From contig CALWUU010000043.1 of NCBI GenBank assembly GCA_944384835.1, positions 50,004 to 114,003 on the forward strand: a stretch of DNA of 64,000 nt. The letters run 5' to 3'. The notes below the pieces were generated by a model. The model was not told the DNA's origin. It saw nothing but the letters and a program-made list of their open reading frames with translations, and did not search any database. Positions 47,768-56,962 of this stretch are shown one piece after another (the first letter of the stretch is position 1; the number at the start of each line of letters is the position of its first letter). Made by a program: the position numbers and the translations under genes. Source of the DNA: an uncultured Clostridia bacterium. Its GTDB lineage: Bacteria > Bacillota > Clostridia > Oscillospirales > Acutalibacteraceae.

Positions 47768-47843
47768 TGGAGCGGATGACGAGGCTCGAACTCGCTACCT
47801 CCACCTTGGCAAGGTGGCGCTCTACCAGATGAGCTACATCCGC
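47768..47843 (-). tRNA. tRNA-Gly (anticodon GCC)
   Basis: The reverse complement is GCGGATGTAGCTCATCTGGTAGAGCGCCACCTTGCCAAGGTGGAGGTAGCGAGTTCGAGCCTCGTCATCCGCTCCA. It folds as a cloverleaf with anticodon loop TTGCCAA, a TPsiC arm GTTCGAGCC and an encoded CCA. Confidence 0.95.
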
Positions 47844-49137: not shown

Positions 49138-50121
49138 TTGGGATACAGCCGTGAAATTTATGATGAGGCCATGGCCATGGTAAATGGAAACCGTGCGAAA
49201 GCAATGGAAGAATGTAATTTGCGCAAAACAGCATTTTACGGGCAATATCCTCGCGCGGCAGAAATTGAAACAGAATTAGCAGCAACGGCAATTGAAGCTG
49301 CAAGAGCAGTATTAAACGGCGCTCATGCAAAAGAACAGCTAGCGTTATTGAAACAAAAAAATCTTTCCCTGCAAAATGAGCGTATTTCGCTGTTACAAAA
49401 AGCAGGACTTCCCGAAACGTATTTGGAGCCTTCCTTTTCATGCAATATTTGTAAGGATGAAGGATTTGTTGACGGCAGAATGTGCAGTTGCTTAAAAAAG
49501 CTAATGCGCATACAAGCATGCAATCAACTAAACGCTTCTACCCCCCTTGCGCTGTGCACCTTTGACAATTTTTCTTTGTCCTACTATCCAAACGAACCTT
49601 CTGACAGCGGTATTTCTGCTTATCAGCAAATGGAGCAAATTCTGCGTTATTGCAAAACGTATGCAAATCAATTTTCTATGAATGCTCCAAATCTGTTAAT
49701 GCAAGGCGGAACCGGCTTGGGAAAAACACACTTATCCTTAGCAATTGCACATGAGGCTATTGAAAAAGGATACGGCGTGATTTACGGTTCCGCACAAAAT
49801 ATGGTTACCAATTTGGAAAAAGAACGCTTTCAAAAAGGCAATGAACAACAGGACACCAACCAACTGATGCTGCAATGTGATTTATTAATCATAGATGATC
49901 TTGGAACGGAATTTTCCACTTCATTTGTAACCGCTGCAATTTACAACATTGTAAATACAAGGCTAATGACACATAAACCAACTATTATCAGTACCAATTT
50001 ATCTATGAAAGAATTAGAAGAACGTTACACAGAGCGTTTTGCTTCCCGTATTTTAGGCAGTTATATTCCTCTGTTTTTCCGAGGAAAAGATATCAGACAG
50101 CAGAAAAGACGTAAAAAATAA
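49138..50121 (+). CDS. dnaI: DnaI/DnaC-type AAA+ helicase loader
   Basis: 327 aa. TTG start after AAGGAGG. Has an N-terminal Cys cluster (CNICKDEGF..CSC), Walker A GGTGLGKTHL and Walker B LLIIDDLG. Confidence 0.85.
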   Translation: MGYSREIYDEAMAMVNGNRAKAMEECNLRKTAFYGQYPRAAEIETELAATAIEAARAVLNGAHAKEQLALLKQKNLSLQNERISLLQKAGLPETYLEPSFSCNICKDEGFVDGRMCSCLKKLMRIQACNQLNASTPLALCTFDNFSLSYYPNEPSDSGISAYQQMEQILRYCKTYANQFSMNAPNLLMQGGTGLGKTHLSLAIAHEAIEKGYGVIYGSAQNMVTNLEKERFQKGNEQQDTNQLMLQCDLLIIDDLGTEFSTSFVTAAIYNIVNTRLMTHKPTIISTNLSMKELEERYTERFASRILGSYIPLFFRGKDIRQQKRRKK

Positions 50122-50128
50122 AAATAGA

Positions 50129-50156
50129 GCAGTCTGAACAGACTGCCTTATTTTTG
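50129..50156 (+). terminator. Terminator after dnaI
   Basis: gcagtctg and cagactgc form a hairpin, followed by CTTATTTTTG. Confidence 0.55.
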
Positions 50157-50170
50157 TGGAAAAAAGAAAA

Positions 50171-50215
50171 AGGAATTACCTATTTACATCCCCATGAAAT
50201 AGGTAATTCCTTTTA
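50171..50215 (-). terminator. Terminator after agrB
   Basis: aggaattacctattt (50171-50185) pairs with aaataggtaattcct (50197-50211) in a 15-bp stem. A T-run follows on the minus strand. Confidence 0.8.
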
Positions 50216-50812
50216 TTAAATTGCTGTTCTCTTTTTTACCGCATCTGCAATTTTAGAAATCCCCACTAAAATTGAGACAGTTGCCACAGCTAACATAATG
50301 AAAACGGCATAACGCTGTGTTTGAGAGAAACAGCAAAGCACTGCAAATATGATGCTGTACAAGCTAAGAATAACTTTTACCTTAGCCTTACATTTTTTCA
50401 CTTCGGGTTCTGATAACGGTTTATTCTTATCTTCAACCGGAGCTATAAACAGCACGGTCAAAGCGCAACATGCAAACAGGAGAGTAATAATAAGTAATTG
50501 TAGTATGGTGCTGATATAAACACCTAGAAAAACACTAAATCCAAATAAAAGGACTGAACTAATGTAACATTTCAAGTGACTGCCAGCATGAAAGCCACCT
50601 GAAAAAGTACGTAAGGGAATAAAGAATAAGAGATAAATAATGCTTTCAATGATACATTGAAAAATGGCTCCAATAATTAAACATGTTGCGATACCGAACG
50701 CTTGTGACAGCATCAAGCCAAATGCAAAAGTGAAGAAAGCTGATTCATCTTCGGGAATAATTTTCCCTTTTACAGATGCAGCTACGCATTTCTCAGCAAG
50801 CTTTGTAATCAT
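50216..50812 (-). CDS. agrB: Accessory gene regulator B (AgrD-processing membrane peptidase)
   Basis: ORF 50216-50854. Start placed at ATG 50812 (MITKLAEKCV), which overlaps the agrD2 TGA stop as ATGA. Polytopic membrane protein. LRTFSGGFHAGSHLKC has His and Cys 7 residues apart, like catalytic H77/C84 of S. aureus AgrB. Confidence 0.88.
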   Translation of the reverse strand: MITKLAEKCVAASVKGKIIPEDESAFFTFAFGLMLSQAFGIATCLIIGAIFQCIIESIIYLLFFIPLRTFSGGFHAGSHLKCYISSVLLFGFSVFLGVYISTILQLLIITLLFACCALTVLFIAPVEDKNKPLSEPEVKKCKAKVKVILSLYSIIFAVLCCFSQTQRYAVFIMLAVATVSILVGISKIADAVKKRTAI

Positions 50813-50958
50813 GTTTGAAACTGATTGGGGATTGCTGGAATATAAGGTTGGCACAACATAAAATAGTATGCCGAATTTACGTTGCCCATTGTGGCTGCGA
50901 AAGCTGTACCTGTAGAAATTTGTACAATCTTCTCAAAAAGGTTACGATTCGTTTTCAT
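50809..50958 (-). CDS. agrD: AgrD-like autoinducing-peptide precursor 2 (49 aa, non-canonical Cys position)
   Basis: Hand-translated and not in the ORF track: MKTNRNLFEKIVQISTGTAFAATMGNVNSAYYFMLCQPYIPAIPNQFQT. GGAGG lies 9 nt upstream of the ATG. It aligns without gaps to AgrD-like 1. Confidence 0.7.
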   Translation of the reverse strand: MKTNRNLFEKIVQISTGTAFAATMGNVNSAYYFMLCQPYIPAIPNQFQT

Positions 50959-51104
50959 ATTTTCATACCTCCACAAAAGTTTGACATCCTGTTATGCCAA
51001 ACATTTTATGAATACCAAAGATACTGCTATATTAATTCTTTGGGTGTTTCCCTTACACGATCTGTAAGAGAATGAATCATTTTCATATTTTCAATAGCGA
51101 GAAA

Positions 51105-51254
51105 TTATTTTTGGAATCTTTTTGGAAGTGCCGGTACTTTTGGCTGATGCAACATAAATGTACATGCAGAGTTAACATTGGATACTGCTACTTTTGCTGC
51201 TGCCTCTGTAGCTGCTTTCATAACTTTGTTTGTGATTTTGTTTGTGATTTTCAT
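51105..51254 (-). CDS. agrD: AgrD-like autoinducing-peptide precursor 1 (49 aa)
   Basis: Hand-translated and not in the ORF track: MKITNKITNKVMKAATEAAAKVAVSNVNSACTFMLHQPKVPALPKRFQK. GGAGG lies 8 nt upstream of the ATG. The SAC-x4-HQP..P pattern matches clostridial AgrD (Cys plus 4 ring residues, then a HQP/EP tail). Confidence 0.8.
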   Translation of the reverse strand: MKITNKITNKVMKAATEAAAKVAVSNVNSACTFMLHQPKVPALPKRFQK

Positions 51255-51322
51255 TCTCATTTCCTCCAAATATTTTTATGAATTAATTGGCTTTATCAGC
51301 CTACATAAATTATAAAAGAAAA

Positions 51323-51358
51323 ATGCGACATTTGGGAAAAAACGTCGCATTTTGCTTT
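51323..51358 (-). terminator. Hairpin with T-run between kinase 2 and agrD1 (terminator or attenuator)
   Basis: The minus strand reads aatgcgacg-N12-tgtcgcatt followed by TTTTCTTTT. A TATAAT (51314-51309) follows immediately. Confidence 0.5.
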
Positions 51359-51419
51359 TTAGTGTGACTGAACTTCACACTCGTTCATATTTTATTCATA
51401 AACTCTGCATATTATGAAG

Positions 51420-52751
51420 TTATTTTTGTTCATTAAGTAATGGAATTGAAATTGCAAGTGTAAAGATTGTGTCACTATGATCAATACTTATAATACCATT
51501 ATATTTTTCGACAGCCATTTTAATATTCTCTACTCCAAACCCATGATTGTGTTTATCCAATTTAGAAGAAACAAGCTTTTCATTTTCATAAATCAAATTA
51601 TTTTGTTTTGTGTTTTCTATAATAATACTTAAAATATCATTTGTGCGTTTTACTTCTAAAATAATTTTCTTTTCACCATGTTGTATTTCACTGCATGCTT
51701 TTACGGCATTATCCAATGCGTTTGCAAAAATAGTACAAGTATCAATATATTTTAAAAAGGATAAATCATTGTACAAAATTTGTTTTTCAAATGTAATTCC
51801 CTGTTCGTTACAAGTTTTCTCCTGCTCATATAAAATCACATCAAATGCAGTATTATTTACGCGAAAACTAGATGCCGCCATTTGCTGGCTCATCTGTGTT
51901 TGCAATTCATGCATATAATTCAACGCTTTATCTTTACTGTCTGTGTGATATAACCGTTCCAGTGTAGTAATGTGATTTTTAAAATCATGCAATTGTTTTC
52001 GACTTTCATTCAAACCTTTTTCAATTTGTTTATAGTAACTTGCTTGGATTCGCTGCATTTCTTCAGCTTCCCGCAATTGATTTTCCAACTCATATTTTCT
52101 TAAATTTCTGTCATAAATAAAGAACACTGCTATATTACATAAAATTAATCCAAAACAAACTAAAGACATAAAAATTTTATGACTTTCATCTTTCGGCACA
52201 TATGCCTCCAATTTAACCATTAAAATAATATTTGCAATCGTTACAATAGGTAACGTAAATAAAAGCAATACTTCTTTTCCACTTTTGGCATATTTTCTAT
52301 CTTTGGTAAATATAAAAATAATTCGGATAATAATAAATAATAAAACTTTGCTAATAATGGTCATAGCTAACCTGGCCGTGGGTATCTGTATTACCATTGT
52401 TAAATTTTCTCCGAATATCCATGATGTCAAAATAATAACAAAAAATTCAAAGAATATAGATAACGTGGCTACCAGTACCGATAGAAAGAATTTTACCAAT
52501 AATTTTCCCTTATAGAAAACAATTGCCATAGATAAATTTAATATAACTGCAACAATTACATTAAGCCAAAATATTCCTAAAAAGTTGATACAAGCTAAAC
52601 TGACACCACATACCAGAACACTAATCGCTTTTATTATTATATCTGGTTTAGATGTTCCCCATTTATCTAATAAAAAATGATGAAATAACATCAATACAAT
52701 TAAAAAATCAAAACAACATAAAAATGACTGTATTATAATTTCGTACATCAT
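51420..52751 (-). CDS. AgrC-like sensor histidine kinase 2 (HPK10 / GHKL, polytopic sensor)
   Basis: 443 aa with 6-7 N-terminal TM segments. Contains H box HDFKNHITTLERL, N box FANALDNAVKAC and G box HGFGVENIKMAVEKYNG. Confidence 0.88.
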   Translation of the reverse strand: MMYEIIIQSFLCCFDFLIVLMLFHHFLLDKWGTSKPDIIIKAISVLVCGVSLACINFLGIFWLNVIVAVILNLSMAIVFYKGKLLVKFFLSVLVATLSIFFEFFVIILTSWIFGENLTMVIQIPTARLAMTIISKVLLFIIIRIIFIFTKDRKYAKSGKEVLLLFTLPIVTIANIILMVKLEAYVPKDESHKIFMSLVCFGLILCNIAVFFIYDRNLRKYELENQLREAEEMQRIQASYYKQIEKGLNESRKQLHDFKNHITTLERLYHTDSKDKALNYMHELQTQMSQQMAASSFRVNNTAFDVILYEQEKTCNEQGITFEKQILYNDLSFLKYIDTCTIFANALDNAVKACSEIQHGEKKIILEVKRTNDILSIIIENTKQNNLIYENEKLVSSKLDKHNHGFGVENIKMAVEKYNGIISIDHSDTIFTLAISIPLLNEQK

Positions 52752-52805
52752 TTTTTAATACTCCTTCAAATAGCTTTGGTTAAAAAGCTATAAAATCTTT
52801 ATATA

Positions 52806-54125
52806 TCAAGCGGGCAGCGGAACTATTACTGCCAAAATAAAGCTGTCCTGTGTGTATTCAATACTAACCAATCCATGATATTTTTCAACTGCCATTTTAA
52901 TATTTTCTATCCCAAAGCCATGATGTTCCTTATTAGCTTTAGTTGTAAAAAAACGGTTGTTACTTTCCAAAATTTGATTCTGTTTCGTATTTTTTATTAC
53001 GATACTAAGCATATCTTTTTGTCTTTTTAAAACCAGTTCAATCTTTCTTTTACCTGTTTTTATTTCACTGCAAGCTTTCACCGCATTATCTAACGCATTG
53101 GCAAATATGGTACAAGTATCCATATAAGACAGAAATGACAAATCATTATATAAAATTTGTTTCTCAAAGGTGATATTTAAGTCCTGACAGCGTTTGTTCT
53201 TTTCATATAGTATAACATCAAAAGCTGCATTTTTCACTTTAAAACTTGCCAAATCCATTTGTTCTTTCATTTGTTGTTGCAATTCTTGCATATAAGAAAC
53301 AGCTTTGACACTCTCTTTACCTTCATGCAAATGTTCCAATGTTGTAATATGGTTTTTAAAGTCATGCATTTGTTTCCTGCTCTCATTCAAACTTTTTTCC
53401 AACTGCATATAATAGTTCGCCTGCAGTCTTTGCATTTCTTGCGCTTGCCGCAGTTCATTTTCAAGTTCATATTTTTTTAAATTTTTATCATAGATAAAAA
53501 ATACTGCGATATTACATAAAATCAGTCCAATGCAAACAAAAGCCATTAGAATTTTGTGGCTTTCTTCTGAAGGCGCATGATATTCTAACTGCACCATTAA
53601 TATAATATTGGCTACTGTTACAATCGGCAATGTATAAAGTAAAAGAGATTCTTTTCCGATTTTAGTATATTTTTTACCTCTTTTTATCAAAAAAATAATA
53701 CGAACCAAGGTAAAAAGAAGAACCTTACTGATAATCGTCATAGGTACTTGCACAGAAGGAAGCGTAACTATAACCGTAAGGTTTTCACCAAATATAGCTG
53801 AACCCATAACCATAGTAATAAATTCTGATACTAGAGATAAAGTACACGTAACTACAGATAGAAAAACTTTAACTAACCATTTTCCCTGATAAAAAACACA
53901 TGATAAAAGAAAAGTTAATGTAAAAACAGTTAACACATTCCAAAGAGAATTTTGGAACGTGTTAATAAAAGTTAACGTAATAGAACAAACGAGAATACCC
54001 AAAAACTTAAAGAGAAACAATTTTCGAGATTGTTCCCACCTATCTTTTAGATAGTATTGCAAAAACATGATAAAAATACTGTACTCCACCACACATATCA
54101 GTATGCCAAACAGTAATTCAAACAT
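52806..54125 (-). CDS. AgrC-like sensor histidine kinase 1
   Basis: 439 aa paralog of kinase 2 with the same motif set (HDFKNHITTLEHL, FANALDNAVKAC, HGFGIENIKMAVEKYHG). Confidence 0.88.
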   Translation of the reverse strand: MFELLFGILICVVEYSIFIMFLQYYLKDRWEQSRKLFLFKFLGILVCSITLTFINTFQNSLWNVLTVFTLTFLLSCVFYQGKWLVKVFLSVVTCTLSLVSEFITMVMGSAIFGENLTVIVTLPSVQVPMTIISKVLLFTLVRIIFLIKRGKKYTKIGKESLLLYTLPIVTVANIILMVQLEYHAPSEESHKILMAFVCIGLILCNIAVFFIYDKNLKKYELENELRQAQEMQRLQANYYMQLEKSLNESRKQMHDFKNHITTLEHLHEGKESVKAVSYMQELQQQMKEQMDLASFKVKNAAFDVILYEKNKRCQDLNITFEKQILYNDLSFLSYMDTCTIFANALDNAVKACSEIKTGKRKIELVLKRQKDMLSIVIKNTKQNQILESNNRFFTTKANKEHHGFGIENIKMAVEKYHGLVSIEYTQDSFILAVIVPLPA

Positions 54126-54127
54126 AG

Positions 54128-54832
54128 CTATCCCCTTATGTATTTTTGAAACTTCATATTAAAATTGGTCATTCTGTCTCTTGCCAATTTAATTTCTGTT
54201 GAATAATCTAAAATAACCTTTGTTTTTGTAATGCTTGTAACGTGGTCAAAATTCACAATATAGCTCTTTTGAGGCATCTCGAATTGATCGGCAGGCAATG
54301 ACGACAGTAAATCATTCAATGAAGCCCCTGTTTCATACACTTGTTCTTTTGTATAAATAATTCTCTTTCTCTGATAAGATTCAATATAAATAATTTTGTT
54401 GATAGAAATAAAGCAATTTTCATATGCGCATTTTACCGCAATTTTTCTGTTAAGCTTTTTAAACTCCTGAATACAAGAAAGAACAGCTTCATTAAATTTG
54501 TCCTGAGCAATTGGTTTTACCAAGTACCTATGCGCATGCAAATGGTACCCTTCAGCAGCGTATTGCTCAAAAGAGGTAGTCAAAATAATGGTAGCGTCCA
54601 GTCCGTCTTTTACCAACTGTTTGCCAATCTCTATACTGTTTACTCCATTTTCCAGCTGAACATCTAAAAATAGAATGTCATAGATATTTTTAATATTCAA
54701 TAATTCCTCTGAAGTACAAATTTCATCAAGTTCATAATCTACATCATTGGAAATCGCAAACTCGTCCAGTTTATCGCGAATAATTAAACGATGAATTGCT
54801 TCGTCATCGCAAACGGCTATTTTTAGTAACAA
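54128..54832 (-). CDS. LytTR-family response regulator 2 (AgrA-like)
   Basis: 234 aa. TTG start overlaps the regulator 1 stop by 10 nt. The receiver has CDDE, FLDVQL and LVKP. The C-terminal domain is LytTR-type. Confidence 0.88.
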   Translation of the reverse strand: MLLKIAVCDDEAIHRLIIRDKLDEFAISNDVDYELDEICTSEELLNIKNIYDILFLDVQLENGVNSIEIGKQLVKDGLDATIILTTSFEQYAAEGYHLHAHRYLVKPIAQDKFNEAVLSCIQEFKKLNRKIAVKCAYENCFISINKIIYIESYQRKRIIYTKEQVYETGASLNDLLSSLPADQFEMPQKSYIVNFDHVTSITKTKVILDYSTEIKLARDRMTNFNMKFQKYIRG

Positions 54833-55557
54833 TTTCCGTCAACACCTTTACAAAAGCCTCTCAAGTACTTGTGAAACTTCATATTAAAATCGTCTATACG
54901 GTCTCTTGCCAGTTTTATATCAATGGTATGTTCCAATATCACTTTGGTTTTGGTTAAACTGGTTACACAGTCTAAATTCACAATATAACTTTTTTGCGGC
55001 ATTTCAAATTGCGTGGTAGGTAATTGCTCTAATAATTCCTGAAGCGATGCGCCTGTTTCATAAACCTGTTCCTTTGTATGGATCATTCTTTTTCGATGGT
55101 AAGATTCTATATAAACAATACTGTTAATAGAAATAAAGCAATTTTCATATGCGCACTTAACTTCTATTTTTCTATTAGATTTCTTAAAATCCTTAATACA
55201 AGATACTATCGCTTCATTAAAATTTGACTGTTGTATCGGCTTTATCAAATAGCGATGTGCCTTTAAATAATATCCTTCAGATGCATACTGTTCAAACGAT
55301 GTCGTGATGATAATAGTGGCGTCAATACCTTTTTGCAGCAATCGCTTTCCTACTTCAATGCCATTCATACCGTCTTCCAGTTGCACATCCAAAAATAGAA
55401 TATCATAAATATTTTCCATTTTCATCAATTCTTTTGAACTGGTAAATTCATCAAGTTCATAATCAATATCATTTGAAATTGCATAGGCATCTAACTTGTC
55501 ACGAATAATCAATCGATGAATCGCTTCATCATCACAAACAGCAATTCTTAACAACAT
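54823..55557 (-). CDS. LytTR-family response regulator 1 (AgrA-like)
   Basis: 244 aa. Receiver residues are conserved (CDDE, FLDVQL, LIKP) and the DNA-binding domain is LytTR-type. By eye it is roughly three quarters identical to regulator 2. Confidence 0.88.
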   Translation of the reverse strand: MLLRIAVCDDEAIHRLIIRDKLDAYAISNDIDYELDEFTSSKELMKMENIYDILFLDVQLEDGMNGIEVGKRLLQKGIDATIIITTSFEQYASEGYYLKAHRYLIKPIQQSNFNEAIVSCIKDFKKSNRKIEVKCAYENCFISINSIVYIESYHRKRMIHTKEQVYETGASLQELLEQLPTTQFEMPQKSYIVNLDCVTSLTKTKVILEHTIDIKLARDRIDDFNMKFHKYLRGFCKGVDGNCY

Positions 55558-55666
55558 TCCAGCAACACCTTTTCATTATAGTGAAATAATTATTTTCATA
55601 CCTGAATCATTTTGAATAGTATTTACTGCTATAATTTGAAATAAAATCCAATTTTGGATTATTTCT

Positions 55667-55695
55667 ATTATAAAAACAAATATTGAATATGTCAA
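55667..55695 (-). promoter_or_regulatory. Consensus sigma-A promoter of the regulator/kinase operon
   Basis: The minus strand reads TTGACA (55695-55690), a 17-nt spacer, then TATAAT (55672-55667). Confidence 0.6.
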
Positions 55696-55752
55696 AAAAT
55701 TTAACATATTTTTCTTAAATTGGGAAGAAATTTACTGAATATGTCAAAAAAT
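55684..55752. repeat. 17-nt direct repeat TGAATATGTCAAAAAAT (two copies, 52-nt period)
   Basis: Exact copies at 55684-55700 and 55736-55752. Each contains the TTGACA hexamer on the minus strand. Confidence 0.85.
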
Positions 55753-55831
55753 GTCGTTTAGCCATGTTTTAAATTTGCAGCAGCTTTTTTAACTGCCGCA
55801 GTATAAAAACATTATCATAGATTTTTATCTG

Positions 55832-56962
55832 TTATACGTCTGCCAATTCGCCAAGGCTTTTGGCTTTTAAGTATGCATTGATAAACCCGTCAATGTCCCC
55901 GTCCATGACCGCATTAATATTACCCATTTCATAATTGGTTCTATGGTCTTTGACAAGTGTATAAGGCATAAATACATAAGAACGAATTTGACTTCCCCAG
56001 CCAATTTCTTTTTGCTCACCTTTAATATCTTCAATTTTATCCAAATGTTCACGCTCTTTAATTTCCATTAATTTGGAAACAAGCATTTTCATTGCTGTTT
56101 CACGGTTTTGATGCTGGCTGCGCTCTACTTGGCATGCCACAACAATATTAGTCGGTATATGGGTAATGCGAACCGCCGAAGACGTTTTATTTACCTTTTG
56201 ACCGCCGGCACCGCTGGCACGATAAACATCAATACGCAAATCATCCGGATTAATGTCCACTTGGATATTATCATCAATTTCCGGCATAACCTCTAAAGAA
56301 GCAAAAGAAGTATGACGTCTGCCGGAAGAATCAAAAGGAGAAACACGAACCAAACGGTGCACACCTGCTTCGCTTTTTAAAAAGCCGTATGCGTTGGTTC
56401 CCTCTATTAATACAGATGCGCTTTTTAACCCTGCCTCTTCTCCGTCCAAATAATCCAATGTTTTTACTTGGTAACCATGACGTTCACCCCAGCGGCAGTA
56501 CATACGGTATAACATTTCCGCCCAATCCTGCGCTTCGGTTCCTCCTGCGCCTGCATGAAACGTTAGAATTGCATTATTCCCATCATATTCTCCTTGCAGC
56601 AAAGTAGAAAGCCGCTGTACTTCCAGTTCTGAATGGAAGTGTTCAAACTCAGACTGTGCTTCTTCCAATATAGAGAGGTCTTCTGCCTCATTTCCCAGTT
56701 CTATTAAGGTTTGAATATCATCAAACATTTGTTTTAAGGCGTTATATTTTGCCACTTTATTTTTTAAAGTACTGGTACGCTGCAATACTTTTTGAGAATG
56801 CGCCATATCATTCCAAAATTCCGGTTCAGCCGCCTGCGCCTCCAACTGTTTAATCTCTTCTTCTGCCGCTTTTAAATCCAAAGCTTCTTCCAAATCAGAC
56901 AAATCCGGTTTCAGTTCCTCTAAAGCTAATTTTAATTCTTCAAATTGAAGCATTTCTATCAT
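55832..56962 (-). CDS. prfB: Peptide chain release factor 2
   Basis: 376-aa uninterrupted ORF with SPF and GGQ motifs (VSPFDS, SGAGGQKVNKT). ATG 56953 is an alternative start. No +1 frameshift site is needed. Confidence 0.95.
   Translation of the reverse strand: MIEMLQFEELKLALEELKPDLSDLEEALDLKAAEEEIKQLEAQAAEPEFWNDMAHSQKVLQRTSTLKNKVAKYNALKQMFDDIQTLIELGNEAEDLSILEEAQSEFEHFHSELEVQRLSTLLQGEYDGNNAILTFHAGAGGTEAQDWAEMLYRMYCRWGERHGYQVKTLDYLDGEEAGLKSASVLIEGTNAYGFLKSEAGVHRLVRVSPFDSSGRRHTSFASLEVMPEIDDNIQVDINPDDLRIDVYRASGAGGQKVNKTSSAVRITHIPTNIVVACQVERSQHQNRETAMKMLVSKLMEIKEREHLDKIEDIKGEQKEIGWGSQIRSYVFMPYTLVKDHRTNYEMGNINAVMDGDIDGFINAYLKAKSLGELADV

Follow-up and report, generated by a model that had tools for sequence, protein, structure and literature searches.

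The window analysed here, a stretch of 64,000 nucleotides from contig CALWUU010000043.1, carries what is, by its gene content, a chromosomal agr-type peptide quorum-sensing system of an uncultured gut Acutalibacteraceae bacterium. The regulator gene agrA and the kinase gene agrC are each present as a tandem pair, and both copies of each are under purifying selection; they are accompanied by two AgrD-type peptide genes and a single maturase gene, agrB. The second peptide gene, agrD2, has lost the codon for its ring cysteine. The account which we favour with moderate confidence is a circuit of one signal (AgrD1), one maturase, two receptors and two regulators, with specificity groups of the staphylococcal style and with AgrD2 as a degenerate copy. 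AgrB would cleave AgrD1 and cyclise it to a thiolactone peptide with the ring CTFML, which would be sensed by both kinases and feed both regulators. The agr system is the model case of peptide quorum sensing and of interference between pherotypes and, to our knowledge, nearly all that is known about it comes from one-kinase, one-regulator loci in pathogens. An abundant uncultured human-gut lineage here maintains a pair of receptors and a pair of regulators in a single operon under selection while its second signal gene decays, and the locus raises the question why a cell should use two receptors for one signal.

The seven open reading frames (ORFs) and their junctions, as described in an earlier note on this DNA, were all found at the same minus-strand coordinates. 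In the order of transcription, agrA1 (54823..55557) encodes RR1, a 244-aa receiver and LytTR response regulator (Pfam Response_reg 47.8 bits, LytTR 57.9 bits), and agrA2 (54128..54832), which starts with TTG, encodes RR2, a 234-aa regulator of the same two domains (LytTR 60.3 bits in Pfam). Both regulators have the FLD57 and K106 motifs, and the agrA2 start overlaps the agrA1 stop by 10 nt, an overlap kept, like the TTG, in all doubled loci. The AgrC-like kinases are encoded by agrC1 (52806..54125; HK1, 439 aa, of the HPK10 type, with a polytopic sensor at approximately residues 1–205 and a DHp/CA module; HATPase_c_5 89.5 bits) and agrC2 (51420..52751; HK2, 443 aa; HATPase_c_5 83.7 bits), and at least six hydrophobic segments were found in kinase residues 1–210. 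The gene agrD1 (51105..51254), with the ribosome-binding site (RBS) GGAGGA, encodes the 49-aa precursor of an autoinducing peptide (AIP), ...NVNSA-C-TFML-HQPKVPALPKRFQK, with CTFML as the predicted thiolactone ring. A gap of 146 nt separates it from agrD2 (50809..50958), an open frame for a 49-aa degenerate paralog, ...NVNSA-Y-YFML-CQPYIPAIPNQFQT, the TGA stop of which overlaps the ATG of agrB (50216..50812; 198-aa AgrD maturase) in the sequence ATGA. The two regulators are 75% identical. The kinases are 57% identical overall, with 48% in the sensor and 65% in the cytoplasmic part.

The agr-type assignment rests on family matches for AgrB, AgrD, kinase and regulator. Hidden Markov models of Pfam and NCBIfam detected AgrB, HATPase_c_5, Response_reg, LytTR and AgrD1, which bore out the families named in the earlier note as well as its single AgrB and its tandem paralog pairs of regulator and kinase. 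AgrB matched PF04647 with 117.7 bits (cutoff 23); its H75 and C82 are invariant across 11 homologues and have the seven-residue spacing of H77/C84, the catalytic dyad of S. aureus AgrB (PMC10482373). AgrD1 scored 40 bits (cutoff 19) with TIGR04223, the NCBIfam model of AgrD-family cyclic lactone autoinducer peptides. The sole PDB sequence match of HK1 was 6e52, the kinase module of S. aureus AgrC; the phospho-His positions coincide in the alignment, the kinase motif HDFKNH falling on the HDYVN His of AgrC. The staphylococcal equivalogs were reached neither by the regulators (AgrA, NF046049; 27.4 and 24.2 bits against a cutoff of 400) nor by the kinases (AgrC, NF046015; 34.4 and 25.7 bits against a cutoff of 500), and by these scores the window proteins are only family-level relatives of staphylococcal AgrA and AgrC. 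A LytTR system of the double-glycine/ABC type (ComCDE, Blp, Pln) was considered and rejected, since the locus has AgrB and AgrD and no ABC transporter.

Loss of the ring cysteine in AgrD2

AgrD1 has the motif of a textbook clostridial AgrD, NVNSA-C-TFML-HQPKVP, which corresponds to NVNSA-Y-YFML-CQPYIP in the window AgrD2. The ring Cys, needed for the attack on the acyl-enzyme of AgrB by which the thiolactone is closed, is replaced by Tyr, and residues beside the cleavage site are altered as well (H>C, K>Y). The window AgrD2 gave no match to TIGR04223 or to any other AgrD model, even at E≤10. The statement of the earlier note that none of the copies looks decayed was therefore wrong for agrD2. 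The allele is not an error, because the identical 49-aa protein was found on at least nine independent contigs, which stem from several projects and carry the whole locus in intact form wherever they are long enough.

Canonical AgrD2 orthologues are encoded in three sister species-level metagenome-assembled genomes (MAGs), namely L010 (SAC-SSML-HQPKIP), L011 (SVC-SFML) and L012 (SAC-SFML-HQPKIP), the rings being CSFML or CSSML. In L012, the AgrD1 and AgrD2 rings are both CSFML and the NVNSA tail is identical. A profile search for AgrD2 relatives over 5.8 billion proteins provided canonical alleles with the rings CSFML, CSSML and CNFML and, in addition, alleles from which the Cys had disappeared independently, by C>R (P0099), by C>G (P0102, P0104) or by a codon deletion (P0101, P0103; listed in 38 blocks of the index). 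The agrD2 of L001 has a 30-nt in-frame deletion and is strongly diverged. The canonical orthologues pass TIGR04223 at 24–30 bits, and every Cys-less allele is without a match even at E≤10. The Cys was thus lost at least four times in the clade, at least three of these in sister lineages, and both kinases and both regulators are intact in the Cys-lost loci that were recovered in full. By these sequence criteria AgrD2 is a homologue by descent and not a functional member of the AgrD family, and an 'AgrD-like' ORF beside agrB found in genome mining would not necessarily be a signal. Truncated or frameshifted AgrD2 proteins (P0100, P0106, P0107, P0109–P0111) were not used as evidence of pseudogenisation. 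The source of P0111, L054 (GCA_009741595.1, VOFC01001444.1), is error-ridden, with all genes fragmented, and the truncated AgrD2 'proteins' that come from it are artefacts; L054 is a caution on pseudogene calls taken from databases.

Selection was assessed by pairwise Nei-Gojobori comparison of the window with six other doubled loci. The dN/dS values were 0.02–0.05 for agrA1, 0.03–0.05 for agrA2, 0.06–0.11 for agrC1, 0.05–0.08 for agrC2, 0.02–0.07 for agrD1 and 0.07–0.14 for agrB. The value for agrD2 was 0.50–0.78, and pairs in which both AgrD2 alleles are canonical gave 0.34–0.68. With nonsynonymous and synonymous differences of 23/10 (Nd/Sd), AgrD2 differed from AgrD1 (Fisher p=0.0003–0.005) and did not differ from the neutral expectation (p=0.10–0.62). 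The gene is near-neutral across the clade, the simplest reading of which is that it is a redundant copy which drifts. At its origin its ring would have been that of AgrD1 or very close to it, and by the loss of the Cys in the window lineage it would have ceased to be an autoinducer precursor.

A new function of AgrD2(Tyr) would also account for its persistence. The protein might be cleaved by AgrB without cyclisation and act as a linear peptide, or it might be a dead-end substrate which titrates AgrB and damps the signal. The gene retains its open frame, a good RBS, the N-terminal amphipathic helix region and the C-terminal IPxIPxxFQT, which speaks against complete degeneracy and makes some function possible. 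The allele is fixed, being identical on the nine or more contigs mentioned above, and since the acyl-enzyme of AgrB forms first and only then is attacked by the internal Cys (PMC10482373), cleavage without cyclisation is chemically conceivable. However, its differences are indistinguishable from neutral ones, the residues flanking the cleavage site have changed, and other lineages have destroyed the Cys in different ways, deletions included, which points to loss and not to a new conserved function. Coupling of agrB to the agrD2 frame, proposed below, explains the retained ORF more simply. We consider a function of AgrD2(Tyr) of either kind improbable.

Specificity groups and the two kinases

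The window, L040 and L011 have an AgrD1 with the ring CTFML, and L041, L010, L012, L049, L051, L052 and L001 have one with the ring CSFML. In these 10 genomes the sensor domains of both kinases fall into the same two groups, with at least 84% identity within and 73–76% between the groups. This grouping matches the AgrD1 ring exactly and does not match the AgrD2 allele; the AgrD2 alleles (Tyr, canonical, deleted, Arg, Gly) are distributed irrespective of the sensor type. The association is more than phylogeny because of two reciprocal near-isogenic mosaics, window/L041 and L049/L011. L041 and the window share 99.5–100% nt identity in the upstream region, agrA1, agrA2, agrD2 (the same Cys-less allele) and agrB, and 96.5–100% and 93–97.5% in the cytoplasmic halves of agrC2 and agrC1, respectively. 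The identity falls to 60–84% in the sensor-coding segments, so that the sensors are only 76% (HK1) and 75% (HK2) identical in amino acids, and AgrD1 of L041 differs by T32S, which makes it S-type. L011 and L049 are 97.5–100% identical through agrA1-agrA2 and 98.5% in the agrC2-agrD1 spacer. Between these, L011 has a T-type block from the start of agrC1 through the agrC2 sensor (59–76% nt identity to L049 in the most divergent windows of the alignment) and, in addition, a T-type agrD1.

The groups of S. aureus are determined by a hypervariable region which covers agrD and the kinase sensor, with conserved regulators (PMC10482373). The co-variation of the AgrB C-terminus with AgrD known from S. 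aureus was not found between the window and L041, the AgrB proteins of which are 100% identical in spite of the different rings (CTFML and CSFML). The dN of the regulators was 0.012–0.034 whatever the specificity group of the compared genome. By these comparisons, the locus has the pattern of an agr specificity-group polymorphism exchanged by recombination. The strains would fall into two specificity groups, CTFML and CSFML, with both sensor domains and agrD1 exchanged together. The switching of both sensors with the AgrD1 allele speaks for the peptide derived from AgrD1 as the ligand of both kinases. With its four sensor alleles and its two peptides, which differ in Thr/Ser, the locus offers a natural experiment on how AIP receptors tell near-identical ligands apart.

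The earlier note had suggested a two-signal/two-receptor circuit, in which AgrD1 and AgrD2 are both matured by AgrB and each serves its own kinase/regulator pair. Two copies of every signalling part beside one AgrB would fit such a circuit, as would the two different canonical rings in sister genomes (CTFML and CSFML in L011, CSFML and CSSML in L010), and there is a precedent in C. autoethanogenum, for which two AgrDs sharing one AgrB were proposed (PMC8748961). Nevertheless, the window AgrD2 has neither Cys nor Ser at the cyclisation position and fails the AgrD model. The gene is near-neutral everywhere, its Cys was lost repeatedly without the loss of a kinase or regulator, and the rings of its canonical alleles are identical or almost identical to the AgrD1 ring, fully so in L012. 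The AgrD2 allele co-varies with neither sensor and AgrD1 with both. These results do not support the suggestion, and we regard two signals as having little chance of being correct.

The regulators of the favoured one-signal circuit probably cross-talk or form mixed dimers and would not represent two insulated channels. The H-box with the following helix, HDFKNHITTLE, is identical in HK1 and HK2, and the alpha1 helix DDEAIHRLIIRDKLD is identical in RR1 and RR2. In other two-component families these elements usually carry the specificity of kinase-regulator pairing. Their identity here gives no sign of insulation and makes cross-phosphorylation or mixed dimers plausible. On the other hand, fixed paralog-specific differences were found at 23 positions in the regulators (14 in the receiver and 7 in LytTR) and at 34 in the kinases (20 in the sensor, 9 in DHp/linker including K270D, and 5 in CA), which means that the copies are not interchangeable duplicates. 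Heteromeric kinase/regulator pairs, the other reading offered in the earlier note, may exist, the sequence speaking neither for nor against them.

These differences bear on the view that the duplication is meaningless and in transit, the extra kinase and regulator being redundant and about to be lost like AgrD2. Single-copy A-C-D-B relatives at the same syntenic site and the decay of one of the three duplicated genes would agree with this. Against it, all four genes are intact in all 11 complete doubled loci examined, including those at species-level divergence with dS >1, the dN/dS of the kinases and regulators is 0.02–0.11, the paralog-specific differences are fixed, and the split of the kinases predates the species radiation. 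This view is very improbable.

The second receptor might instead belong to a pair that listens to others. One kinase/regulator pair would sense the strain's own peptide, and the other would eavesdrop or discriminate, reading related peptides from co-resident strains of the other group or from former AgrD2-type producers as an activating or antagonistic input. The retention of two old kinase lineages is consistent with this (98% bootstrap for HK1 with the L006 kinase, 0% for HK1 with HK2), and so are the merely 48% identical sensors and the co-circulation of CTFML and CSFML strains in human gut metagenomes; an orphan second receptor would also be expected once AgrD2 dies. Both sensors are, however, swapped whenever the AgrD1 allele of the strain itself changes, and with the identical H-box and alpha1 in the paralogs separate outputs are not evident. 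We find an eavesdropping pair unlikely, though worth keeping in mind. Somewhat less probable still is an obligate mixed module, in which AgrC1/AgrC2 and AgrA1/AgrA2 work only together, either as heterodimeric kinases or as heterodimeric LytTR regulators on asymmetric half-sites. It would respond to one autoinducer, both sensors being swapped together for the pherotype, and AgrD2 would be a translated leader or an AgrB-titrating decoy which sets the level of AgrB. If true, this would be a two-sensor coincidence or ratio detection built into the locus, which is not known from any AIP system.

Several points weigh against the one-signal circuit that we prefer. The association of the sensors with AgrD1 consists of one T/S polymorphism and two mosaic strain pairs. 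The genes agrC1, agrC2 and agrD1 are close neighbours and their co-switching may be partly hitchhiking; the intervening cytoplasmic segments were not swapped in L041, however. A sensor divergence of 25% is large for a Thr/Ser change in the ring. A few DHp residues are not the same in the two kinases, among them K270D, a charge reversal, and HK1 and HK2 may have some preference of partner. Finally, the 49 codons of agrD2 give low power to separate neutrality from weak constraint.

Distribution, origin and related systems

The locus lies between prfB and a dnaC/dnaD-like gene pair in a clade of uncultured gut bacteria named Ruminococcaceae, Clostridia or Acutalibacteraceae in the source records. 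The arrangement AA-CC-DD-B was found in the window, L010, L011, L012, L040, L041 and L049–L052 and likewise in L001, with decayed agrD2; in all, the doubled layout recurs in at least five species-level MAGs and in many metagenome contigs. A single A-C-D-B set occupies the same syntenic site in three more distant lineages, and the same order was found in most of the distant clostridial loci recovered. Since agrACDB is also the order of the C. difficile 027 locus (PMC3754575), the gene order is ordinary for the class and it is the doubling of agrA and agrC that is unusual. The order had been called atypical in the earlier note, which is true with respect to S. aureus only. Its layout, put forward there as possibly new, is not unique, as it recurs in relatives, although our literature search found no paper describing the AA-CC doubling. 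Some distant Clostridia/Tissierellaceae have two agrD-agrB pairs a few kb apart (L015, 1383–2095 and 7843–8555; L018, 3559–4235 and 7861–8552). Judged by these sequences, it is the signal-production half and not the receptor half which is duplicated in lineages of this type.

The 20 nt ahead of the agrA2 TTG (AAAGGTGTTGACGGAAATTG) match the RBS region of agrA1 (AAAGGTGTTGCTGGAATG). By this match, the regulator duplication brought along its own leader, and the 10-aa C-terminal extension of AgrA1 is a read-through into the duplicated leader of agrA2. In the kinase tree, HK1 grouped with the single kinase of the L006 lineage with 98% bootstrap (85–86% for each domain separately) and the exclusive grouping of HK1 with HK2 received 0%, which excludes a recent duplication of the kinase gene in place. 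The kinase pair would come either from an old duplication followed by reciprocal losses or from lateral acquisition of HK1, and on the tree the split is older than the species radiation. The alternatives in the regulator tree have 20–24% support, too little to place the three duplications in order or in time.

Remnants of agrD2 in the single-copy relatives, as expected from an ancestral D-D-B arrangement, were sought and rejected, since alignments with the D2 unit were no better than shuffles (L003, z=0.1–0.2; L002, z=−0.3 to −0.9; L006, z=2.5–2.9); only L001 was significant (z=27–31). The supposed remnant in L003 had been an RBS/start and an 'IPQQLFL' tail judged by eye. A 19-codon ORF (51027–51086, minus strand; MKMIHSLTDRVRETPKELI) directly follows the agrD1 stop in the window and stays open yet variable in L010, L011 and L012 (e.g. 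MKIMYSPLTNGVRGTSKELI). The sequence around its start, GAAAATATGAAAAT, resembles in repeated form the one at the start of agrD2 (GAAAATATGAAAAC), and its ATGAAAAT is also found as the opening 8 nt of agrD1. This ORF may have been left over from the junction of the agrD duplication.

The locus resembles S. aureus agrBDCA (groups I–IV) in the His/Cys dyad of AgrB, the five-residue Cys ring and Pro-containing tail of AgrD, the polytopic HPK10 kinase and the LytTR regulator, and also in its allelic groups, which are set by variable agrD and kinase sensor with conserved regulators (PMC10482373). It differs from S. aureus agr in the order A-C-D-B in two units, in the tandem kinases and regulators with two receptors tied to one peptide, in the position of AgrB outside the variable block and in having no recognisable RNAIII; an Rfam scan of the locus for RNAIII-like or other known RNAs gave sub-threshold chance matches only. 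C. difficile 027 agr2 is a clostridial locus of the same A-C-D-B order, but its genes are single, and tandem paralogs of kinase or regulator are not described for it (PMC3754575). Agr 1 and 2 of C. autoethanogenum comprise two agrD and two agrC genes and one agrB, the product of which was proposed to process both precursors. They form two separate loci without agrA; the AgrDs are both canonical but differ in their rings, and a phenotype required the double mutant (PMC8748961), whereas the window has one single locus with a degenerate second AgrD. The closest functional analogue of one signal with two receptors and two regulators is Lactiplantibacillus plantarum lamBDCA with the orphan lamKR, where the AIP LamD558 is reportedly sensed by two homologous agr-type two-component systems acting together, LamCA and LamKR (PMC12405376). 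There lamKR is unlinked, whereas in the window a single operon holds the paralogs in interleaved order (A1-A2-C1-C2) and the two sensors switch along with the peptide allele. On the sequence evidence, the features which set the window locus apart from all these systems are the interleaved paralogs in one operon, the degenerating second peptide gene, the sensors co-switching with the peptide allele and AgrB outside the variable block.

Candidate expression signals and neighbouring features

The locus would be expressed as two transcription units. The first of these, agrA1-agrA2-agrC1-agrC2, is probably driven constitutively by P(agrA1) (55667..55695, minus strand; TTGACA-17-TATAAT), which agrees with the consensus at 12/12 positions, is the only perfect site in the locus and has invariant hexamers in 7 genomes. 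A few bases downstream of its −10 element lies a 7-bp perfect palindrome, AATCCAA-AA-TTGGATT (55636–55660, minus strand), and then a block TTGGRTTTTATTTCAA conserved in 7 genomes within the agrA1 leader of about 110 nt. The palindrome could be an operator or an element of the 5′ untranslated region. A hairpin in the spacer between the two kinase genes was not significant (z=−0.7).

The second unit, agrD1-agrD2-agrB, would probably be autoinduced from a promoter with a weak −35 element placed behind a repeat. This promoter, P(agrD1) (51309..51338, minus strand), reads TTCCCA-18-TATAAT; the TATAAT is kept throughout the doubled clade and in L002 and L003, and weak −35 elements are typical of activator-dependent promoters. 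Its −35 region is overlapped by a terminator-like hairpin with a T-run which follows agrC2 (51320..51353, minus strand; −19.7 kcal/mol, z=−7.6) and is conserved across the clade. The hairpin and TATAAT box reported ahead of agrD1 in the earlier note thus proved to be real by scanning and folding. Farther upstream, a direct repeat of T(A/G)TGAA with a 21-bp periodicity (51374..51400, minus strand) is a candidate LytTR binding site, 21 bp being a spacing typical of such sites. The repeat is conserved in 9 genomes, the single-copy relatives included, its half-sites TATGAAT/TGTGAAG are asymmetric, and the 21-bp-spaced TRTGAA pattern has 2 matches in the whole 64 kb against 0.10 expected. Its distance of about 65–98 nt upstream of the −10 element is greater than that of the S. 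aureus AgrA boxes, which counts against the proposed autoinduction.

Within the second unit, a hairpin between agrD1 and agrD2 (50979..51002, minus strand; −15.2 kcal/mol, z=−5.5), with a sequence conserved in the doubled clade, has a T-tail which reaches the agrD2 RBS. It might act as an attenuator by which the ratio of agrD1 to agrB is set. In relatives, a G+C-rich hairpin with a T-run was seen by eye between agrD and agrB (L001, 7772–7800, CCGGCATACCGTGCCGGTTTG; L003, 7865–7920), and attenuation between the peptide and maturase genes may be a conserved feature of the clade. No purine-rich Shine-Dalgarno (SD) sequence was found upstream of the agrB ATG. All full-length alleles retain the agrD2-agrB overlap, ATGA in the window and TTGA in L010–L012, and the two deletions known in agrD2 are in frame. 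These observations suggest that agrB is probably translationally coupled to the agrD2 ORF. Such coupling is probably the reason why the agrD2 frame stayed open. An intrinsic terminator follows agrB (50161..50214, minus strand; −24.2 kcal/mol, z=−5.5, then a T-run).

The agr locus has 29–33% G+C compared with about 40% in the flanks (50000–56000), which is not evidence of recent transfer, as the syntenic site is the same in all relatives. The other match to the TRTGAA repeat lies in an intergenic region at 531–557 on the minus strand (TATGAAAAAAGAGGTTTTATCTATGAA). A gene on the same strand (MVLYLFGYIRPKIPELKVRE...), which continues beyond the window start, follows about 90 nt downstream of it. 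This second match could mark a target of the regulon or be an AT-rich chance match. The only tRNA gene in the window, tRNA-Gly(GCC), is located at 47768–47843 on the minus strand between typA and the dnaD-like gene.

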